From a virus (taxonomy: Duplodnaviria > Caudoviricetes), in IMG/VR virus record IMGVR_UViG_3300025689_000001, positions 58,746 to 122,745 of that record: a stretch of DNA of 64,000 bases. One strand, written 5' to 3'. Position 1 is the first letter of the stretch, and each line of letters starts with the position of its first letter. Positions 55,117-64,000 of the stretch are shown piece after piece. Position numbers and translations under genes: made by a program. The notes under the pieces are model-generated. The model ran no database searches, was not told the origin of the DNA, and saw nothing but the letters and a program-made list of their open reading frames with translations.

Positions 55117-55800
55117 TTAATGGTCAGTGCCGTAGCCGCTGAGGACAATCTGACCCTTACTGTCTGCGAATTCGATTAAGCAACCCGGCTGCCAACCACG
55201 GTAGAAGATTTCAACAGGCATTCCGAATTCTGTAATTTCATAGATTTTGTAGTTCTCTGTACAGATGTCCTGCATATCAATGTAGTGAATGAGTTCGCTT
55301 GAAGTCATGATTGTGTTATCACGAGAATCTTCATCCCACTTACAAATTCTCTGAACGAGGAACTGACGCTGGTCTGTCATCGGTGCTTCATAGAAGTTGT
55401 AGCTACCGTCCTCGTTACGATTGTCGAGGTCAAAAAGGTTAACGCAGTCTTGCTTTACTTCTTTCCAATCCTCTTCATCATAGCCCTCAGGACCAAAGCC
55501 ATAGCACTTCCATCTGCAATTCTTATAGAGATAACGATAATCGCTGAAGATTCCTGTTTCATCATTGATAAACTCTTCAAGAGAGCAAGTATGCTGCACA
55601 GCATCTTCATAAGGCTCAACCTTGCAATCCTCATAAAGGTGACGGAACTCTCCTGCATTGATAATCTTCTTTGCAAGGAAATCACCATCATGAATGGTTC
55701 TCAGAATCGGAACCATATGTTCAGGGTAGCCATCTGTCTGGCAGTAAGCGAAGTAAACCTTATCTCCGAAAGCATAACCGATTAAGCAATGTGTACTCAT
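55117..55800 (-). CDS. Hypothetical protein
   Basis: MSTHCLIG...YCQTDGYPE, an N-terminal pattern common in phage proteins. Confidence 0.7.
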   Translation of the reverse strand: MSTHCLIGYAFGDKVYFAYCQTDGYPEHMVPILRTIHDGDFLAKKIINAGEFRHLYEDCKVEPYEDAVQHTCSLEEFINDETGIFSDYRYLYKNCRWKCYGFGPEGYDEEDWKEVKQDCVNLFDLDNRNEDGSYNFYEAPMTDQRQFLVQRICKWDEDSRDNTIMTSSELIHYIDMQDICTENYKIYEITEFGMPVEIFYRGWQPGCLIEFADSKGQIVLSGYGTDH

Positions 55801-55818
55801 AATTCTTTCCTTCCTTTC

Positions 55819-56136
55819 TTATCTTGCGGATGCGGTCTTGAATCTCTTCGCCGCCCGTTCTTGTCTTAACTTCTTGGCTTCAATCTTATTTGGAATGTGC
55901 GGTCTTGTCTTAAGAATCTCATAAATCCTCATTGACATTCTCCTGCGAAGCTCAATACATTCTTTTTGACACTGGCAGTTGCCCCAGTAGCAATCACAAG
56001 AGGAGTCATTATAATTGTTGTCATAGTATCTCATGAGTTCGATAAGATTTTTTGTAGCCATCGTTTCCAACTCTTTGGTCGGAATATTTCTATAACAAGG
56101 TGTCGTCATATTTCTCATTTCCTCTCTTTCTCTCAT
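55819..56136 (-). CDS. Hypothetical protein
   Basis: Follows the promoter at ~56140-56177. Confidence 0.65.
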   Translation of the reverse strand: MREREEMRNMTTPCYRNIPTKELETMATKNLIELMRYYDNNYNDSSCDCYWGNCQCQKECIELRRRMSMRIYEILKTRPHIPNKIEAKKLRQERAAKRFKTASAR

Positions 56137-56257
56137 TTTCTATAATAATTATAACAAAAATTTTAGAAAAAGTAAAGGGCTAAGAACTTTAAAATTTTCT
56201 TTAAGAAAATCAGTTCTTAGCCCCATCTTGCTATCCATATTCTTTTGAGTTTGATTG

Positions 56258-56293
56258 ACAAATCAGTTGCGCTACCTATTGCGCCACGAGAGC
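56258..56293 (-). pseudogene. 5' half of tRNA-Thr(UGU)
   Basis: GCTCTCGTGGCGCAATAGGTAGCGCAACTGATTTGT then unrelated sequence; no 3' half seen in the window. Confidence 0.65.
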
Positions 56294-56398
56294 ATACTCA
56301 AGACGGGACTTTGTGTACGGAATTGAACCGCTTTATTTCTTTGGAAGAGAAATTGTTTACCTTAAACTATCACAGTATAGATTGCTGAACCGTCTTAT

Positions 56399-56480
<82 letters not shown>

Positions 56481-56696
56481 ATATACATGGTGGAGCCGTA
56501 CGCTCTCCTATCGCTACCACTATAGCGTCTTAACTACTTTTACGTATAAGTTTGAATATCTACGCCAGCACTCTTCACTGGAGTCAACCACTCTTAACGT
56601 CAATTGGCACCCCGCTCTTTTGTTCAGTTCCAAGAGTAGAACACAAGTTTAGCCTATATCAAACTTGCCAAAAGGTTCGCCTTGTACTTTGGCGTC

Positions 56697-56876
56697 TGGT
56701 GTGGAATAAGGGAATCGAACCCTCGTCCCCTGCATTGGTGCTTCATACAAGTAATGAACTCATATCTTTTGCCATTCTTCATCTGAATATTTCTTTATTT
56801 CAGTTCGAACCGCAAATGTCTTACATTAGACGAATGAGGCGGCAAGCAGGAATCCTAACCGCTGAACGAATTCCAC
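56697..56876 (-). tRNA. trnG: tRNA-Gly(GCC) interrupted by a 105-nt tRNA-shaped intron (56736-56840)
   Basis: Exons join as CCTGC-TTGCC|AT-GCAGG; acceptor GTGGAAT/ATTCCAC; T arm GAGGG-TTCGATT-CCCTT; CCA. Confidence 0.8.
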
Positions 56877-56924
56877 ATTATTGAGGTTTTTGCCGAATGC
56901 TCAGGGATAAACCTCTTAACCCTT

Positions 56925-57009
56925 TGGCGATGACGACGGGACTCGAACCCGCATATAGCTTTCGCTCCGGAGAGACAGTCCGGTGCCTGACCAATTAGGC
57001 TACGCCACC
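56925..57009 (-). tRNA. trnD: tRNA-Asp(GUC) with a long variable arm
   Basis: CCGGA-CTGTCTC-TCCGG; variable arm AGC-GAAA-GCT; G73-CCA. Confidence 0.85.
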
Positions 57010-57151
57010 ATTAAAATCGGTTTACTTTGCTTCTTTATTTTTTTACGAGGCGTTTTCCACAAAGCCACATACCAGATGGTGCTGGTGAACTTAATCACTA
57101 ACCTTTCTGTCGGTGGTAGTTTAACCGCAAAATCCATGTTAACCCCTCAAA

Positions 57152-57238
57152 TGGTCGGCATGGTGGGACTCGAACCCACACGTCCCGAAGGACACTAGCT
57201 CCTTAGGCTAGCGCGTCTGCCAATTCCGCCACACGCCG
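57152..57238 (-). tRNA. trnL: tRNA-Leu(AAG)
   Basis: CTAGC-CTAAGGA-GCTAG; long variable arm; A73-CCA. Confidence 0.9.
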
Positions 57239-57304
57239 ATAAACTCAAGACGGGAAATACATTACCAAAAAATGTTTTGTTATGATTTGCTGAACCGTCT
57301 TTAC

Positions 57305-57381
57305 TGGTGGAGGCGATGGGAATCGAACCCACAACCTCATGCGTGACAGGCATGCGTTCTAACCAACTGAACTACGCTACC
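57305..57381 (-). tRNA. trnD: tRNA-Asp(GUC), two acceptor-stem mismatches
   Basis: CATGC-CTGTCAC-GCATG; CCA. Confidence 0.8.
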
Positions 57382-57455
57382 ATTTCAAGGCTACTTATTT
57401 TAACGAGTAGTTGCCTTAACAAACTCGGTTCTTTTAATGAGGTTATCTCCTCTAT

Positions 57456-57721
57456 TGGCTGGAACGGAGGGACTCGAACCCACGACCTGACGGTTATGGC
57501 ATCAAATGTCAGGATTGAACTGACGATATCCTTGCTCATAAAGCCTTTCATGCTCCTCTGCGTGACAATTTGAACACAACAGGATACATTTATCAACCTC
57601 TTTCTTTAACGAAGAAATATTTTTTGATAAACATCCACAGATTTCACAGGTCTTCATTTTAAATATCACTTCCACAAGTATCTGATACAGCCGCCTGCTC
57701 TACCAGCTGAGCTACGAACCA
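57456..57721 (-). tRNA. trnN: tRNA-Asn(GUU) interrupted by a 190-nt tRNA-shaped intron (57497-57686)
   Basis: Exons join as GGCGG-CTGT|TAA-CCGTC; G73-CCA. Confidence 0.8.
57502..57657 (-). pseudogene. Internally deleted HNH endonuclease (51 aa) inside the tRNA-Asn intron
   Basis: MKTCEICG...KEVDKCILLCSNCHAEEH; the central HNH segment is missing. Confidence 0.7.
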
Positions 57722-58142
57722 ATCTGTTGTACTTTTTAAGTAACTTTCTTTTGTCTTAACTCTAAAATAATTATATCATAAATTTTAGAAAATGTCAACT
57801 TTTCAATTCTCTAAAATTTTTGAAATCGAAAGGAATCCGGTGGAGTTTACAAGCGGTGCCACCGGTCACCAGTTATTTTAGAAAGGAAGAGCAGTTTACG
57901 AAACGACTTACTCGGGTCGAGAAGATTTCTTTTTTTTCTTTTCCTCATTTTCTATAATAATTATACTATAAATTTTAGATTTTGTCAAGATTTCTTTTCT
58001 CTAAAATTTATTTATAGAAGCGTCCCTCCAAAGGAGTGATTTGTTTATTTGTGGGATTTCTGACACTGAACCTAACGCCATTATTGTAGAAAGGAGTTCC
58101 TGCACTTTTCTTCGCCGCCGTGCAGGTAGCGGAAGTAATTAT

Positions 58143-58897
58143 TGGTTGCGGGGGAAGGATTTGAACCAACGACCTCCAGCTTCATATTCTTCTTTAGTTG
58201 TCAAACATTTTTTCAAACGTATACTCGGTTAAGTTTTAGGGTGATAAAGAAAAGGTCTTAGAACTATTAGAGAAAGAAAACAAGGAAATTGTTCGCCGCC
58301 TTGTCAATTCTGGTTTAACTTATAAAGAAGCCTCTTGCGGCATTGGACAGTGGAAGTTTGAGTACGAGGCTGAGACTTTTATTCAAACTGCTCCTAAACA
58401 TTATTCTTACTGCGTTAATGGTCTTGAATAAGATTACAGTTTGATTTAGTTCCATATTTTGGAAGCTCAGTCCTAAAAATTTTACTTTGAGATTTCTCAA
58501 TCATTTCTACTGGAATGAAAACCGCTTTGTCTTCAATAAAAGTAATAATGAAATCAATTTCATCTTTAGTATAAAATTTTCGTACATTTCCATTAGCTTT
58601 CATAGCTGTATTAGAAGTGTTTACTGTATAACTTCCATTATCATTTTTGTGGGCACTTTTACATTGAATTCTTACAATCTTTTTACCAGTATCAACTAAA
58701 AGGTCATATCTTCCTACATTTCCATAAGGGATTGAACATAAATAACCTTTATTAGTAAAATACAAAAGACTTCTTAATTCAGTAGAAATTCCTTTTTGAA
58801 TTTGTTCACTTAATAAATTTGACATTTTACATCACCTCTCGGTGATAACTAACATTGAATATGAGGCTGGCGAGCTACCAGACTGCTCTACCCCGCA
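58143..58897 (-). tRNA. trnM: tRNA-Met(CAU), initiator-like D arm, interrupted by a ~678-nt intron (58183-58860)
   Basis: TGCGGGGTAGAGCAGTCTGGTAGCTCGCCAGCCTCAT | AAGCTGGAGGTCGTTGGTTCAAATCC...CCCCGCAACCA. Confidence 0.8.
58415..58825 (-). CDS. Intron-encoded PD-(D/E)XK endonuclease (I-Ssp6803I-like); C-terminus displaced by an insertion
   Basis: KG...E, P.G...RYDLLVD, RIQCKS, YTKDEIDF. Confidence 0.85.
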   Translation of the reverse strand: MSNLLSEQIQKGISTELRSLLYFTNKGYLCSIPYGNVGRYDLLVDTGKKIVRIQCKSAHKNDNGSYTVNTSNTAMKANGNVRKFYTKDEIDFIITFIEDKAVFIPVEMIEKSQSKIFRTELPKYGTKSNCNLIQDH

Positions 58898-58947
58898 ATA
58901 TAAAGCGGCGACGTGCGCCGCTTAAATCGCACTTTATCTTTTTCTTA

Positions 58948-59370
58948 TTAACCCTGAGCCTCAGCCTTAACCTGTGCTCTCTTTGCTTCATCAGCCGCAA
59001 TCTGCTTTGCCTTAGCTTCTGCCTTAGCGGCATCATTTGCAGCCTTTGTTGTGATGTAACTGTCATACTGTGCAGCCGAATCATAGAAATCGAAGGGGGT
59101 GTATGTCTTCTTGTCGGAAGTGTGATTTGTAAACTCCTTAACTGCCGCACTTACTGCAACGACAATCGGGTTTGTCTCACCATCTTCGCCAGTTCCCTCG
59201 CCGACGATAACACCGATAAGATTTGTCTTGGACTTATCAGAGCCAGTTCTCATCATCTCAGCTGTACCGTACTTCTCTCTGAGACATTCAAGGATATATT
59301 CCTGAACCTCATTCTTCACATCTGCCTTAGCTTTCGCCAGTGTATACTCCTTAGTGATTGTAATATCCAT
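58948..59370 (-). CDS. Hypothetical protein, family D
   Basis: Paralogue of 46625-47068; own promoter. Confidence 0.7.
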   Translation of the reverse strand: MDITITKEYTLAKAKADVKNEVQEYILECLREKYGTAEMMRTGSDKSKTNLIGVIVGEGTGEDGETNPIVVAVSAAVKEFTNHTSDKKTYTPFDFYDSAAQYDSYITTKAANDAAKAEAKAKQIAADEAKRAQVKAEAQG

Positions 59371-59516
59371 TTGATACCTCTTTCCCGCCCTTTTGAGCGA
59401 ATTTGTTATTTTGTTTTTCTTAACTTTCTATAAATATTATACAATATTTTTTAGAAAAAGTCAAATTTTTATTGCCTTAAATTTTTTGATTTGGGGCGGA
59501 AGTCCGCCCCTCTGAC

Positions 59517-59882
59517 TTAGGCGAGGGTGTAACCCTTCACCTTTCTGCCGTTGGAACGAACCTCAGACTGAACGAGCTTACCTTCCTTGGTGAGGTCACC
59601 AGCAAGGCTGGAAGCCTTCATTGTGGTTACGCCGACCAGAGTGCCGAGCTCAGAAGCGACATAAGTCTTGCCTGCTTCCATTACGGAGAGCATGGTTTCA
59701 CGAGCAGCGGCATCAGCTTCACGCTTAGCAACTGCGGCTTCGGAGTTCTTACGCTTGTCGTTCTTCTCGTCGAGCTTTGCAAGACGGGCAACTGCGAATG
59801 CCTTGAGGTCTTCGGAAGCGGTCTCAAGAGTTGCAACCTCTTCCCATGCGTTTCTTTCTGTGAACTTAGATGTAGTAGCCAT
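59517..59882 (-). CDS. Hypothetical protein, family A
   Basis: EKNDKR...TYVASEL...GRKVKGY; own promoter and terminator. Confidence 0.7.
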   Translation of the reverse strand: MATTSKFTERNAWEEVATLETASEDLKAFAVARLAKLDEKNDKRKNSEAAVAKREADAAARETMLSVMEAGKTYVASELGTLVGVTTMKASSLAGDLTKEGKLVQSEVRSNGRKVKGYTLA

Positions 59883-60003
59883 AATAGCCTCTCTTTCTGC
59901 ACTGTAAGGCGTGTGCCGCCATTCTTATTTTTTGGGGAATTCCTTCCTCATTTTCTATAATAATTATATCATAAATTTTAGAGTTTGTCAAGTTTTCTTT
60001 TCT

Positions 60004-60429
60004 TTAAAGTTTTTCAACTTGAGTAGAGAACTCAAAATCATCTTTCATTTTAACACCGACTTTCTGTCCATTCTTAGGTAATGTAAGTCTTATATTTAAC
60101 TGTGTTAAAACTACATCATCAGGTATATATAATCCCGACCAATTATTTTCAACACAGTACAAATAAAATACATCGACTTCATTTGTTGAATAACGAGTTG
60201 TTTTCCAAGCACCTTTTGAATAGTTTGTAGTCTTAGTGCTAAAAACCATCTTGTCGTCTTTGATAGACTCAGTTGTTTTTACTTGTACTCGATATATTTT
60301 CTAACCATTATCTATGATTAAATCATAACGAGCATTGTTACTCAAAGGAGTACTTACAACAAACCCAGCTTTTGTGAAATCGGCAATCGCCATTGCTTCG
60401 CCTATATCACCTATACCAACTGTATTCAT
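60004..60429 (-). CDS. Free-standing PD-(D/E)XK endonuclease next to tRNA-Lys (one TAG)
   Basis: MNTVGIGDIGE...RYDLIIDNG[TAG]KIYRVQVKT. Confidence 0.85.
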
Positions 60430-60448
60430 TTGCACCCCTCCTGTAAAA

Positions 60449-60524
60449 TGGTGGGTATGACAGGACTCGAACCTGCAACCTCGAAATTAAAAGTTTCTTG
60501 CGCTACCAATTGCGCCACATACCC
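60449..60524 (-). tRNA. trnK: tRNA-Lys(UUU)
   Basis: Anticodon loop CTTTTAA; full cloverleaf; CCA. Confidence 0.9.
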
Positions 60525-60769
60525 ATATGTACCGTTGGTGACCAACCTTATTGCTGACGGCACAGCACCCCTATTATTAGTTTTTCGCTCTCTCACTCAA
60601 TAGGGGGATGAACGGGCACCTATCGTTTGCCAACCGCTTTCCTTTCGAAGGTCAATCAGGGCGAAGAATATTCCCTACAGATTGAAGATATTCTGCATCT
60701 ACATATTTTAGGCACGATGTCTCGCCGCCAGCCTTGTATGTTTTACTTCCCTGCCGCATCCGAGAAGAA

Positions 60770-60845
60770 TGGTCACGCCTACGGGACTCGAACCCATATC
60801 TTCGCCTTGAGAGGGCGACTTCCTGACCAGTTAGAAGAAGGCGCG
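60770..60845 (-). tRNA. trnE: tRNA-Glu(CUC)
   Basis: TCGCC-CTCTCAA-GGCGA; CCA. Confidence 0.9.
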
Positions 60846-60921
60846 ATTTCCAGAAAAGGTATTTCTCAACCTTTTCTATAATAATTATATCATAATTTTT
60901 TAATTTTGTAAAGCTCTTAAC

Positions 60922-61452
60922 TCAATAAGAATTTATGATTTCGATTGAGAACTCATACTCTTCAAGAGTCATCAGCACATCGTGGAGATTAAATTTTGTA
61001 TCGGGATAATCGCCCTCATCTTCAATATCACGAATTGCATCTGCGATAACTCCGCTGTTGAGATAACGTTCTCTGTCCTCAATATTCTCATAAGCCAGAA
61101 TATCTTCGAAGCGAGCGAAAAGATTATCCCAAGCACAAAGTCTTGAAAGCTGACGAATGGTAATCTGCCGAGCAGAATGAGCACCCCAGATTGAATCTGT
61201 GAACATTTCATCATTCCTATCTGCCACGGCGGCAGAAAGAGTTTCGATGATATCCTCAAGAGCTTCAGGCTTAACCTCAAGCTGCCAGTCTTCATCATAT
61301 GAGATTACGTTCTCTTCGTTTGCCATTGCAACCTGCATTGTCTTAGTGCGAAGTGTCCAACACTTACGCCAGTAAGCAATTTCAAAGTTGGCAACGACTT
61401 CATTGTCCTTTCTTCGCTTCAGCTTTATACTCATTTCATAGTCAAGTCCCAT
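60922..61452 (-). CDS. Hypothetical protein (MGLD...YWRK family)
   Basis: ORF with SD GAGGAG. Confidence 0.7.
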   Translation of the reverse strand: MGLDYEMSIKLKRRKDNEVVANFEIAYWRKCWTLRTKTMQVAMANEENVISYDEDWQLEVKPEALEDIIETLSAAVADRNDEMFTDSIWGAHSARQITIRQLSRLCAWDNLFARFEDILAYENIEDRERYLNSGVIADAIRDIEDEGDYPDTKFNLHDVLMTLEEYEFSIEIINSY

Positions 61453-61455
61453 AGT

Positions 61456-61575
61456 TTACTCCTCTCCATCTCTCATGCCGAGAGAATCATCTGCGTCTCC
61501 TGCCGCCTTGCAGAAAATCCATGCCAAAAATGCTGTTACGAGCCAGATGACTCCACCGATGATTACCACTTTCAT
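61456..61575 (-). CDS. Small membrane protein
   Basis: MKVVIIGGVIWLVTAFLAWIFCKAAGDADD. Confidence 0.6.
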   Translation of the reverse strand: MKVVIIGGVIWLVTAFLAWIFCKAAGDADDSLGMRDGEE

Positions 61576-61576
61576 A

Positions 61577-61744
61577 TCACAGCACCTCGACAGAATCAAT
61601 CTCAACGTTGTACTTGAGAGCGAACTCTCTCTTAGCCTTACGGATTGCGTCAGGAGTATCAGTCATTACAACCTGCTCGGTGTAGAACTCCTTGCCGCCG
61701 AAGCCCTCTGCTGTTTTTGCTCTGAGTACGAATGTTCTTTCCAT
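61577..61744 (-). CDS. Hypothetical protein
   Basis: SD AAGGAG. Confidence 0.6.
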   Translation of the reverse strand: MERTFVLRAKTAEGFGGKEFYTEQVVMTDTPDAIRKAKREFALKYNVEIDSVEVL

Positions 61745-61757
61745 GATAATCTCTCCT

Positions 61758-62093
61758 TTATATCTCGTCATATATAGGGGCATATTTGCGAATATGATTA
61801 TGAGTGACCGTAGCCATCAGCTTTTCATTGCCATCGACTTCCTTGATATAAATATCAGTCTTGTCTGTTGTAACAGAACCTCTACCTCTCGGAAAGGTAA
61901 ATTTCTTCGCCACCTTTTCAAGATAAGGTAAGTCAATAGTATTAAGCTCCATTCTGCCGCCGCTATGACGGATAAGAATAAAAAGCGGAACACCATTAAT
62001 CAGTTTGGGATTGCTGTCAAGTAATCGTCTGTGCCACTTCACAGAGTATTCTTCATACTGGTCAGTGACAATAAGATGTGTTTTTACTCTCAT
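61758..62093 (-). CDS. Hypothetical protein
   Basis: Follows the promoter at ~62118-62153. Confidence 0.65.
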   Translation of the reverse strand: MRVKTHLIVTDQYEEYSVKWHRRLLDSNPKLINGVPLFILIRHSGGRMELNTIDLPYLEKVAKKFTFPRGRGSVTTDKTDIYIKEVDGNEKLMATVTHNHIRKYAPIYDEI

Positions 62094-62245
62094 TCAATCT
62101 CTCCCTTTCTCATTTTCTATAATAATTATAGCAAAAATTTTGAAATTTGTCAAGATTTTCTGAGATTAAAATTTTGGTGGAGATGACCAATTCCCTCTGC
62201 CATTAAATTAAATTAAGTTTTGTTTTTAAATAATTCCAATCAAGA

Positions 62246-62494
62246 TTACTTTTTGCTTAGAGAAGGTTCATCAAGAGAACTCTGAACGCAACTTATCTTC
62301 TGAATAGAAAACGTCGATGTAGGCTTTACATCGACGACTTTAACACGAGTACCATTACATACCGCCTTAGTGCCGTCCTCTGAAAGCATACGAATTACAT
62401 CGCCCTTCTTAGGAACATCGCCTACAACTTCATAGTCATAAGTTCTGCCGCCAAAGATAAGCTGCTTATTTTTGAACTGAACTGTAACGAACAT
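62246..62494 (-). CDS. Hypothetical protein
   Basis: SD GAAAGGAG, MFVTVQF... Confidence 0.65.
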   Translation of the reverse strand: MFVTVQFKNKQLIFGGRTYDYEVVGDVPKKGDVIRMLSEDGTKAVCNGTRVKVVDVKPTSTFSIQKISCVQSSLDEPSLSKK

Positions 62495-62585
62495 AATGTT
62501 CTCCTTTCTTATTAAAACTCGACGGTAAATACTCCGCAAAGAATGAAGCGAAATGATTTTCTCTTGATTGCTGACCCGTCATTAT

Positions 62586-62660
62586 TGGTTACCACAGCCT
62601 CGAGTCGAACGGGCATCGTCGGGGTTAGAATCCGAAGTTCTACCATTAAACTATGTGGTA
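62586..62660 (-). tRNA. Amber suppressor tRNA (CUA), Gln-like
   Basis: TCGGA-TTCTAAC-CCCGA; U1-A72 acceptor TACCACA/TGTGGTA; CCA. Confidence 0.85.
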
Positions 62661-62663
62661 ATA

Positions 62664-62739
62664 TGGTTACGAGGGCGTGGCCATGATCCCGCACTCTCCG
62701 GGTTAGAGCCGGAGGTTCTACCAATTAAACTACCTCGTA
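62664..62739 (-). tRNA. Amber suppressor tRNA (CUA), Gln-like, atypical T loop
   Basis: TCCGG-CTCTAAC-CCGGA; acceptor TACGAGG/CCTCGTA; CCA. Confidence 0.8.
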
Positions 62740-62878
62740 ATATTTTTCAAAACAATTTTTAGTGTTACCTTAATATAATAAATCACGATAGAGTTCTTTG
62801 CCACCGTGGCTTTTCGCAAGAAGTCGAACCCGCGTTCATATGCTTAGAATTTTTATGGATTGCTGTAACTGCCTTAGT

Positions 62879-62951
62879 TGGTCGGAGTGGGGAGACTCGA
62901 ACTCCCAGCCTCATGGACCAAACCACGCGCTGCCAGTTGCGTCACACCCCG
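62879..62951 (-). tRNA. trnP: tRNA-Pro(UGG)-like with a shortened anticodon arm (possibly pseudo)
   Basis: CGGGGTG/CACTCCG-A-CCA Pro-type acceptor; anticodon arm GTGG-TTTGGT-CCAT has only a 6-nt loop. Confidence 0.6.
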
Positions 62952-62969
62952 ATAATTATTTAAGAAAAC

Positions 62970-63443
62970 TACATTTGGAAAGGACTTTCTCTTGGGTTGC
63001 CCTACACAACACCAGACACTTGAAGTTGGTCTGTGTAGCCAACAGAACTTCTCTTTACGAGATTCTCTCCTTCATCCACTCCTCGGGCTCACCCAATGAG
63101 TGTCCTTCCCGCCTGCGGGGAACTCTGTCTGCGCTCCCGTTGACCGCCTTACTCACTGCTTCCTTGCCAACCTAATCCGGCTCCACAGCAAGCAGGTCAA
63201 CCGCTATTAAAAACACCTTGACAGTAGGTTTGCTCACTTATCGTATGAGCGGTTCACTACGTCTTCCGACTACGACCGCCAGAAGAATGAAACTTTTCTT
63301 GCTAAGCCCGGGACAGTTTCTACCCTCGCTTGGCTCGGAGTAATCCACTTAGCTGAATTACAAGGTCTTAGCCACACATACAGTCAAGCCATATGTGCCG
63401 TCACATTGCGTTGTGTGACGTATTCGTTGAGCTCTCAACGCTT
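62970..63443 (-). ncRNA. Candidate large structured ncRNA between tRNA-Val and tRNA-Pro
   Basis: ~470 nt, GC-richer, no credible minus-strand ORF, many hairpins (CGTTGAG/CTCAACG, CGTCACA/TGTGACG, GCTCA/TGAGC, CTACACA/TGTGTAG). Confidence 0.55.
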
Positions 63444-63988
63444 TGGTACCCGAAGCCGGGCTCGAACCGACGACCCCTCCTTTAGATAGCTATGCTCAAA
63501 GCTTCCTTAGAACCTCCTCTGCTTTGTAATCATCAAGAAAACTTATTCTTTTTCTTTGACCATTTTTAGGTGGAATAATTCTTAATGTCTTTTCATTACT
63601 GCATTCATTTTGGGGAACTAAATAACATTCTCCTTTGTAAAAAGTGGCAAAATAATTTGCGTCCTCTGAAGTGTACTTATGAGTTGTATAGCCATTGTTA
63701 TTATGACCAATCCAAACAGTTTTGAATTTGATGGCATATACTTCTCCATTTTCACTTAAAGGCTGTGCGTGTTTGACTTGAACTTTATATAATTTATTAT
63801 CCCAATCAATAATTAAATCATATCTTTCGCTATTACCAAAAGGTAAGCTGACTGCACATCCAAGTTCATATAGACGTGTTGCACATTGTAACTCTGTTAA
63901 ATTGCCAATCTTCTTCGTATTTTCCATGATGTTTCGGAAGCGAGTTAGTTATGTAAAAGAGGTGCTCTCCCAGTTGAGTTAATCGGGT
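63444..63988 (-). tRNA. trnV: tRNA-Val(UAC) interrupted by a ~470-nt intron (63483-63952)
   Basis: ACCCGATTAACTCAACTGGGAGAGCACCTCTTTTAC | AAGGAGGGGTCGTCGGTTCGAGCCCGGCTTCGGGTACCA. Confidence 0.8.
63496..63927 (-). CDS. Intron-encoded PD-(D/E)XK endonuclease (I-Ssp6803I-like)
   Basis: IGNLTE, PFGNSERYDLIID, KVQVKH. Confidence 0.88.
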   Translation of the reverse strand: MENTKKIGNLTELQCATRLYELGCAVSLPFGNSERYDLIIDWDNKLYKVQVKHAQPLSENGEVYAIKFKTVWIGHNNNGYTTHKYTSEDANYFATFYKGECYLVPQNECSNEKTLRIIPPKNGQRKRISFLDDYKAEEVLRKL

Positions 63989-64000
63989 ATTTCCTTAACT

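Follow-up and report, generated by a model that had tools for sequence, protein, structure and literature searches.

Endonuclease genes inserted at the anticodon of phage tRNA genes as candidate ribozyme-less introns

Two tRNA genes of an uncultured gut or rumen phage, tRNA-Val(UAC) and tRNA-Met(CAU), are each interrupted in the anticodon loop by an insert carrying a PD-(D/E)XK endonuclease gene, which raises the question of whether, and by what route, such genes could still give rise to tRNAs. In the standard view, bacteria and phages have only self-splicing (group I and group II) introns, and protein-spliced tRNA introns are archaeal or eukaryal. The genes lie in IMG/VR record IMGVR_UViG_3300025689_000001, and the stretch analysed here (64,000 nt, positions 58,746 to 122,745 of the record; hereafter the window) covers the final 64 kb of one viral contig of 122,745 bp, whose completeness CheckV puts at 75%. 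An initial annotation of the window had proposed protein-dependent tRNA splicing exploited by homing endonucleases. With a probability of about one half, we favor the reading that the inserts are mobile intervening sequences made up of an endonuclease gene only, which would be removed by a trans-acting protein cut and sealed by a ligase; we infer the splicing itself and the identity of its enzymes from sequence and predicted folds.

ARAGORN, run with introns allowed so as to detect interrupted tRNA genes, reported three of them: tRNA-Met(cat) with a 678-nt insert, tRNA-Tyr(gta) with a 57-aa HNH-like open reading frame (ORF) in its insert, and tRNA-Cys(gca) with a 105-nt insert. The tRNA-Val gene was not detected in this run; joining of its two exons (Table 1) gave a clean 75-nt tRNA-Val(tac) cloverleaf. 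Exact coordinates confirmed the flank lengths first annotated, with 25 nt before the ATG and 13 nt after the stop codon in the Val insert, and 35 nt before the ATG and 11 nt after an ancestral stop codon in the Met insert. That the Met stop is ancestral was likewise confirmed by relatives. The ancestral Met insert is 481 nt long in L001, L064 and L071, and in L001, whose copy is 73% identical to the window Met copy (copies occur in L001-L003), a 144-aa ORF reaches this stop. In the window, a secondary insertion of ~194 nt truncates the Met ORF at 136 aa and removes its last ~9 codons. The plus strand of this secondary insertion (58221-58414) encodes a start-less helix-turn-helix-like peptide, perhaps a piece of the DNA-binding module of another endonuclease. 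A homologous Val insert was found in L005, with an ORF 56% identical and the same flank motifs. Among the viral contigs searched, no intron-less copy of this phage's own tRNA-Val junction was found, and the spliced Met anticodon-arm 22-mer matched exactly in at least 120 viral contigs, which makes it too common to inform about relatives.

The endonucleases were assigned to a family by sequence and by fold. Pfam PF11645 (PDDEXK_5) matched the Val ORF (E-value 9e-25), the Met ORF (4e-20) and a third, free-standing ORF in the window (6.5e-28), with scores of 87.8, 72.8 and 97.9 bits, respectively, against a cut-off of 26.1. The Val ORF also matched PDB entry 2OST by sequence (E-value 6e-4), and the AlphaFold2 (AF2) model of its protein (predicted local distance difference test score, pLDDT, 93) gave I-Ssp6803I (2OST) as the top Foldseek match over the full length (template modelling score, TM, 0.75; E-value 3e-9), the top ranks being taken by I-Ssp6803I, Hjc and SPARDA nucleases and not by EndA. 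Residues D37, Q50 and K52 (the D...QxK motif) were invariant across 24 homologues, while the ORFs of the class are 25-56% identical and invariance is limited to the nuclease-motif residues. These results demonstrate that the Val, Met and third ORFs belong to the I-Ssp6803I family of PD-(D/E)XK endonucleases, the family named at the outset. The third gene (60435..60004) starts 13 nt past tRNA-Lys, and owing to its in-frame TAG it is either translated only when suppressor tRNAs are present or a pseudogene. Free-standing PF11645 homologues similarly adjoin tRNA genes in the T5-like phages My1 and Chester, cyanophage Sf-FR1 and haloarchaeal virus HSTV-4; these copies sit between intact tRNA genes, whereas the interrupting genes lie inside the anticodon loop and the ends of their inserts pair with the anticodon.

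We then searched viral contigs with a profile built from five of these endonuclease proteins. The search recovered 80 loci, in most of which the ORF lies within a tRNA gene, and after duplicate removal 46 distinct inserts in phage contigs shared the paired ends described below (rod-type inserts). The compact ones among them have median values of 470 nt for length, 30 nt for the 5' flank, 11.5 nt for the 3' flank and 42 nt for the total non-coding sequence, the shortest 3' flanks being 1-6 nt. The tRNA species interrupted number at least 11 (Thr, Asn, Lys, Asp, Pro, Gln, Ser(GCU), Met, Val, Ile and Gly). The anticodon labels that ARAGORN gave to interrupted genes were often off by at least one base, and junctions were re-registered by stem complementarity, a few of them remaining uncertain by one base.

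One member of the class comes from a cultured phage. Enterococcus phage EFP01 (NC_047796) carries a 463-nt insert in a tRNA-Asn(GTT) gene that is unannotated in its record, and in 29 other Schiekvirus phages the flanks align in two pieces that adjoin across an intact tRNA-Asn, annotated in most of the records. Direct reading of the junction in iF6 and EFDG1 showed exons identical to those of EFP01, with the insert placed unambiguously and exactly between T36 and A37. This presence/absence polymorphism with an exact empty site among Schiekvirus phages is indirect evidence that the inserts may be active in homing. It also bears on the insertion point, which had been annotated as the canonical 37/38. 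That placement can be written for both window genes, where a repeated A at the junction allows either 36/37 or 37/38; across the class it can be written for only 13 of the 46 inserts, and the class inserts at 36/37, because the junctions of unambiguous relatives and the empty site in cultured phages fix it there. We also considered the Val gene as an amber suppressor, with the junction at 33/34, anticodon CUA and a valid cloverleaf; this was rejected, as the class rule and L005 put the junction after UAC.

When a genome collection was scanned for essential chromosomal tRNAs interrupted in this way, the only matches were phage-like contigs that had been binned with metagenome-assembled genomes (MAGs) of Ruminococcus, Acutalibacteraceae or Oscillospiraceae. 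The hosts are bacterial, namely Enterococcus and, probably, members of the Oscillospirales. On the same contig as L001, a tRNA-Gly(TCC) gene (L022:2864-2968) contains a 31-nt ORF-less hairpin insert in its anticodon loop, which may be an endonuclease-less derivative of the rod class.

The ends of the inserts follow one pairing rule in every family. Positions 34-36 of the tRNA, continued by the first 4-7 bases of the insert, form a helix with its last 7-10 bases, and the last insert base always partners position 34. The paired fraction was 100% at position 34, 96% at 35, 98% at 36, 93% at each of the first two insert bases, 91% at the third and 83% at the fourth, compared with 40-52% in shuffled controls. 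Each rod position shows 4-6 pair types, and the last three insert bases track whichever anticodon is present across the at least 11 tRNA species. Among the non-Watson-Crick cells of the rod, G-U exceeded A-C by 48 to 4, while composition predicts 1.6:1 (binomial p = 5e-7, a rough value as the sequences are related). The excess of G-U over A-C, the variety of pair types and the tracking of the anticodon together indicate RNA-level selection, with the rod helix maintained in the sense RNA rather than as a DNA inverted repeat.

These data also bear on removal at the DNA level, in which precise excision would restore the tRNA gene in some genomes and the terminal inverted repeats would serve as DNA sites. 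In its favor, an inverted repeat of 7-10 bp arises from the insert ends and the anticodon, and the fold of the nuclease has relatives among the Holliday-junction resolvases. However, the 48:4 ratio points to pairing in the sense RNA, the insert contains no recombinase or transposase, and the inverted repeat takes in three exon bases on one side only; we regard excision from DNA as extremely improbable.

In the window, the Val rod is paired at 8 of 10 positions, with a C-C mismatch at position 36, and the Met rod at 7 of 7, the strands at the 3' end of the Met insert (58183..58220) pairing with 58863..58857 and 58852..58847. Minimum free energy and centroid folds of both whole precursors kept the cloverleaf arms and the rod (z-scores -2.5 and -3.0), so the idea that the insert ends extend the anticodon arm as a stem held up. 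In the Thr/Val/Gly/Ser subgroup, which includes the window Val insert, a helix of 9-10 bp is followed by a 2x2 internal loop and then by a second helix containing the stop codon. The 5' junction falls between two pairs (98% and 93% paired), and the 3' junction at the edge of the 2x2 loop (32, 33 / 37, 38), so that the two junctions are 3 bp apart in a helix continuous with the internal loop. Beyond the tRNA's own U33 and R37, no conserved sequence was seen around the junctions. The Met insert has a 5-bp hairpin over its Shine-Dalgarno bases.

Can such inserts splice themselves? Junction bases, available space and synonymous sites all support the initial annotation, which had held that they contain no self-splicing ribozyme. 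Across the 46 inserts, the last exon base (position 36) is T in 25, C in 12, G in 8 and A in 1, and the last insert base is C in 17, A in 15, G in 8 and T in 6; neither U(-1) nor terminal G, the group I hallmarks, is conserved, and the window Val insert follows C and ends in A. We took a group I core (P3-P9) to need roughly 200 nt, and the 25+13 nt (Val) and 35+11 nt (Met) outside the ORFs leave no room for one. The window Met ORF and the L001 ORF differ at synonymous sites over their entire length, and the partner of the 5' junction is the 3' end of the insert, not an internal guide sequence. Given that a conserved U(-1) and terminal G are lacking, that a core would not fit, that the Met ORF shows synonymous changes over its full length and that the 5' junction lies in a Watson-Crick helix, we consider group I splicing excluded for rod-type inserts, as far as sequence features can decide. 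A Rfam search over 55500-64000, at the gathering threshold and at E-value <=10, matched no intron or small-ribozyme family, the negative that the initial annotation had expected of a covariance search; it is weak evidence, since Rfam also gave no group I match in two loci with core-like words, L035 and L036.

The tRNA introns of L035 (713 nt; L035:428-1227) and L036 (608 nt; L036:80-782) carry the same ORF family without a rod, and have ~100-180 nt 3' of the ORF with words typical of the group I core. Both are probably genuine group I introns of phage tRNA genes that escape Rfam. The nuclease family thus occurs in three forms, group-I-like, rod-type and free-standing. Next to the interrupted tRNA gene of L036 lies a phage transfer-messenger RNA gene (L036:1000-1423; RF00023, 73.7 bits).

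The nearest proven system is the tRNA-fMet intron of Synechocystis PCC 6803, a self-splicing group I intron of 655 nt with a 150-aa ORF (PMC1995217). It shares with the phage inserts the PF11645 family (fold TM 0.75 to 2OST), the tRNA anticodon loop and a mobile endonuclease gene in an intervening sequence. In contrast, the phage inserts (median 470 nt) leave ~42 nt for sequence other than the ORF and show no conserved U(-1) or terminal G, and their 5' junction pairs with the insert's own 3' end instead of an internal guide. This precedent, and the L035 and L036 introns (713 and 608 nt), whose core-like words without a Rfam match show that Rfam silence proves little, are what could be said for self-splicing by a group I core hidden in the ORF or by a new, very small ribozyme formed from the flanks and the tRNA body. 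Such a ribozyme would have to work without a conserved U(-1) or terminal G, with a 5' junction in a Watson-Crick helix that is unfavorable for in-line attack, with a median of 42 nt of non-coding sequence and 3' flanks down to 1-6 nt, and with no junction conservation beyond U33 and R37. A core inside the ORF would have to fit ORFs that are 25-56% identical with only nuclease-motif residues invariant, and Met ORFs with synonymous changes throughout. We judge self-splicing very improbable.

The inserts had also been likened to the stem-type introns of archaea and eukaryotes, and this part of the initial annotation was not borne out. The rod has no 3-nt bulges and no 4-bp central helix, and a rod-type insert is therefore not a bulge-helix-bulge intron; its 5' junction is inside a continuous Watson-Crick helix, and the splicing endonuclease EndA (PF01974) was absent from this phage and from 23 further intron-bearing phage records in a search whose control was positive in 4 archaea and which did not extend to host genomes. 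Archaeal bulge-helix-bulge introns, some with homing-endonuclease genes, are spliced by EndA and RtcB. They resemble the phage inserts in lacking a ribozyme, in interrupting a stable-RNA gene, in having paired ends that present both junctions on one stem and in being able to carry an endonuclease gene (Hausner et al. 2014, PMC3984707; PMC4090602). They differ in that the phage class has neither 3-nt bulges nor the 4-bp helix, inserts at 36/37 and not 37/38, has bacterial hosts, lacks EndA in all 24 phage records and encodes a PD-(D/E)XK rather than a LAGLIDADG enzyme.

The reading we favor can be set out as a series of steps. By family precedent, an I-Ssp6803I-type homing endonuclease would cut the near-palindromic anticodon stem-loop DNA of an uninterrupted tRNA gene, and its gene would spread itself into the 36/37 site. 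After transcription, the last insert bases would pair with the anticodon and the insert's first bases; the anticodon arm would grow into a rod that masks the anticodon and holds the two junctions, across the minor groove, at a distance of three base pairs. Both strands would then be cut without a ribozyme by a structure-specific endoribonuclease acting in trans, probably dimeric and of host or phage origin, after which the tRNA halves would be joined by an RNA ligase (phage Rnl-like, RtcB or of the host). The fuller version, held more tentatively, is that Bacillota phages possess widespread mobile tRNA introns with neither a ribozyme nor a bulge-helix-bulge, which would be excised by a double-strand cut with a 3-nt stagger in the rod, followed by Rnl-type or RtcB ligation.

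Several observations speak indirectly for splicing. The helix under RNA-level selection starts precisely where the exon and the insert meet and changes with the anticodon, this phage has no Val, Met, Tyr or Cys tRNAs other than the four interrupted ones, and the spliced Met anticodon arm is identical to a sequence present in at least 120 viral contigs. We compared the interrupted tRNAs with 315 uninterrupted neighbors and found them equally well paired, with 19.2 Watson-Crick pairs, 1.7 G-U pairs and 1.1 mismatches in the former, and 19.3, 1.8 and 1.3 in the latter. An RNA-ligase-like match (PF09414) was present in 20 of 23 intron-bearing phage records, 12 of them above the cut-off, and 2 of the 3 records without it encode RtcB. 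One or the other was thus present in 22/23 intron-bearing phages, compared with 9/16 in an ad hoc control (Fisher p ~0.004). In a Pfam scan of five ligase ORFs from four phages, four matched PF09414 only, and the fifth (L091) was best explained as an ATP-dependent DNA ligase. RtcB and the PF09414-like ligase did not co-occur among the 23 phages, and the two ligase types appear mutually exclusive there, RtcB being found in G022 and NC_047796 (EFP01; rtcB at 140344-141453). Within Schiekvirus, RtcB is present in EFP01 and EFDG1 and not in iF6.

Several points weigh against splicing. ARAGORN reports only well-formed tRNAs, which biases the comparison of interrupted with uninterrupted genes, and a gene that was intact until an insert homed into it recently could also give a good cloverleaf. 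The enrichment in ligases is weak, with few, smaller and unmatched controls and several matches below the Pfam cut-off, and the ligases of phages with tRNA arrays may instead serve in the repair of tRNAs that host anticodon nucleases have cleaved. The genome search for a splicing endonuclease and a ligase that had been proposed for this phage came back empty, with no EndA and with no RtcB, Rnl1 or Rnl2-type ligase in its 75%-complete genome; RtcB was found in 1 of 5 putative host MAGs. EndA and RNase III were both absent from the 23 intron-bearing phage records, which yielded no candidate splicing endonuclease. We know of no bacterial enzyme that cuts double-stranded RNA with a 3-nt 3' stagger, that of RNase III being 2 nt. 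Finally, phage tRNAs are often dispensable, and an inactivated tRNA gene could go on harboring a selfish endonuclease gene.

The last point leads to an explanation in which the inserts are not spliced at all. A free-standing endonuclease gene would have landed in its own target and inactivated a dispensable phage tRNA gene, and the rod would serve the endonuclease message, for example as a processing site that frees the message from the tRNA transcript, as a stabilizer or as a translational switch, the last because the stop codon and sometimes the ribosome-binding site lie inside helices. Homologues of the same enzyme do stand free beside tRNA genes in My1, Chester, Sf-FR1, HSTV-4 and the window (60004-60435). 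EFP01 is viable and cultured, and 29 relatives keep the intact gene, so that the tRNA may be dispensable. Searches for EndA and RNase III found no splicing enzyme, and both the stop codon in the second helix of the Thr/Val subgroup and the 5-bp hairpin over the Met Shine-Dalgarno bases would suit a role in the message. However, a message-only role leaves unexplained why the helix starts exactly at position 34 and the last insert base, and why, over at least 11 tRNA species, the last three bases follow the anticodon. The interrupted genes also show no decay, and all of the phage's Val, Met, Tyr and Cys tRNA genes, four in number, would be dead. We consider unspliced inserts less likely than excision by a trans-acting protein and more likely than the other alternatives.

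If the inserts are instead excised by protein, the cut could be made by the intron-encoded enzyme itself, which would cleave both tRNA-gene DNA and the rod junctions of its own pre-tRNA before a ligase seals the halves. Junctions 3 bp apart with a 3' stagger across the minor groove are the geometry expected of a symmetric dimeric nuclease, and the exon side of the rod would reproduce both strands of DNA target positions 27-36 (tRNA stem, U33-A37 and the anticodon complement). EndA, like I-Ssp6803I, is built as a tetramer with two cutting subunits, and I-Ssp6803I probably leaves a 3-nt 3' overhang. Published work places the archaeal tRNA-splicing endonucleases in the PD-(D/E)XK fold superfamily (PMC3424549) and describes I-Ssp6803I as a tetramer in which two subunits cut (PMC3017599, PMC3384342). 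On the other side, the metal-dependent DNase motif is kept (D...QxK is invariant), Foldseek puts I-Ssp6803I, Hjc and SPARDA nucleases first and not EndA, and the ORF-less L022 tRNA-Gly hairpin, together with the HNH-bearing and ORF-less inserts of this phage, would need another enzyme. Such a dual function is improbable.

Whether excision by a trans-acting protein would have a counterpart elsewhere can be judged from other inserts in stable RNAs. Intervening sequences of bacterial 23S rRNA are excised by RNase III, and the fragments are not religated and still function. The phage inserts share with them the lack of a ribozyme and a long stem formed by their own ends, which in the rRNA case is removed by a host double-stranded RNA nuclease; unlike rRNA, a tRNA cut in the anticodon loop would need ligation, and the stagger would be 3 nt as compared with the 2 nt of RNase III. 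Devoto et al. (2019; PMC6784885) described 'enigmatic' predicted tRNA introns in Lak megaphages and noted that one of them may encode a tRNA of its own. These too occur in TAG-recoded gut phages, as anticodon-loop inserts without a Rfam family and with intron-plus and intron-minus alleles, whereas that paper mentions no endonuclease gene, rod rule or 36/37 site for the Lak inserts. In the review by Hausner et al. (2014; PMC3984707), every phage intron known at that time is placed in a protein-coding gene. In the literature on phage tRNA introns with homing endonucleases, we found no description of an endonuclease-bearing ribozyme-less class or of the 36/37 rod rule.

Because the class numbers dozens of inserts, obeys a simple structural rule and is represented by a cultured phage, EFP01, which has intron-less sisters and an RtcB gene, it can be tested directly at the bench. 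Protein-dependent splicing, if true, would be a new splicing route, would give phage and bacterial RNA ligases a physiological substrate beyond damage repair and would bear on the origin of ribozyme-less introns from mobile endonuclease genes. If the intron's own PD-(D/E)XK enzyme made the RNA cut, homing endonucleases would be linked to the origin of tRNA-splicing endonucleases; if the inserts were unspliced, homing endonucleases would routinely destroy phage tRNA genes. In either case, phage tRNA repertoires are under-counted, because tRNA finders in bacterial mode miss interrupted genes such as the unannotated tRNA-Asn of EFP01.

Table 1. Features of the interrupted tRNA genes and of the surrounding tRNA cluster (window coordinates)
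Feature	Position	Strand	Basis or remark
tRNA-Val gene, whole interrupted gene	63988..63444	-	
tRNA-Val(UAC) exon 1, positions 1-36	63953..63988	-	Cloverleaf when joined to exon 2
Val insert, 470 nt (25-nt 5' flank, endonuclease ORF, 13-nt 3' flank)	63483..63952	-	
Val 5' flank, before ATG	63952..63928	-	
Val PD-(D/E)XK homing-endonuclease gene, 143 aa, I-Ssp6803I family	63496..63927	-	PF11645, 2OST
Val 3' flank, after stop	63495..63483	-	
Val rod 3' strand	63483..63492	-	Last 10 insert bases against anticodon 63955..63953 and 63952..63946
tRNA-Val exon 2, positions 37-76 including CCA	63444..63482	-	
tRNA-Met gene, whole interrupted gene	58897..58143	-	
tRNA-Met(CAU) exon 1	58861..58897	-	ARAGORN with introns
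Met insert, 678 nt	58183..58860	-	ARAGORN with introns
Met 5' flank, before ATG	58860..58826	-	
Met PD-(D/E)XK endonuclease gene, 136 aa, C-terminally truncated	58415..58825	-	PF11645
Secondary insertion in Met ORF, ~194 nt	58221..58414 (approximate boundaries)	-	Comparison with L001
Retained 3' end of ancestral Met ORF (stop TAA 58196..58194), 11-nt 3' flank, rod helix strands	58183..58220	-	
Met 3' flank, after ancestral stop	58193..58183	-	
tRNA-Met exon 2	58143..58182	-	ARAGORN with introns
Third PD-(D/E)XK endonuclease gene, free-standing, one in-frame TAG	60004..60435	-	PF11645, TAG read as Q
Two tandem tRNAs, anticodon CUA (amber suppressors)	62586-62739	-	
tRNA-Tyr insert	57496-57685	-	HNH-like ORF
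tRNA-Cys gene region, 105-nt ORF-less insert at 34/35 or 35/36	56697-56876	-	

The tRNA genes of the phage in the window form a single minus-strand cluster at 56.3-64.0 kb, and its only Val, Met, Tyr and Cys tRNAs are the four interrupted genes. The tRNA-Tyr insert is 190 nt long, with its 57-aa HNH-like ORF (PHROG HNH, E-value 3e-8), lies at 36/37 and has three unpaired bases before the 3' junction. Together with the ORF-less tRNA-Cys insert, this shows that the phage has at least two further kinds of ribozyme-less tRNA insert. The two tandem CUA suppressors are consistent with TAG recoding in this phage.

PHROGs searches with six small neighboring ORFs (58948-62506) and with 55819-56136 gave no RNA-processing function. 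A tRNA-like gene at 62882-62951 (-) was not called by ARAGORN and scored 34.3 bits in Rfam (E-value 3e-4, under the default listing); by eye, its anticodon stem closes a 6-nt loop. Between tRNA-Glu and tRNA-Lys, ~240 nt at 60530-60770 (-) contain no minus-strand ORF at a 40-aa threshold and have no Rfam match, and two short plus-strand ORFs overlap this region. Between tRNA-Val and the next tRNA, ~490 nt at 62952-63443 (-) are non-coding and G+C-rich, with a folding z-score of -4.5 against shuffles; this segment matched nothing in Rfam or the phage database. EFP01 and L017 carry a ROOL RNA (RF03087; 265 and 151 bits) in a comparable location next to the interrupted tRNA gene, and the window segment may thus be a large ornate RNA that has diverged.

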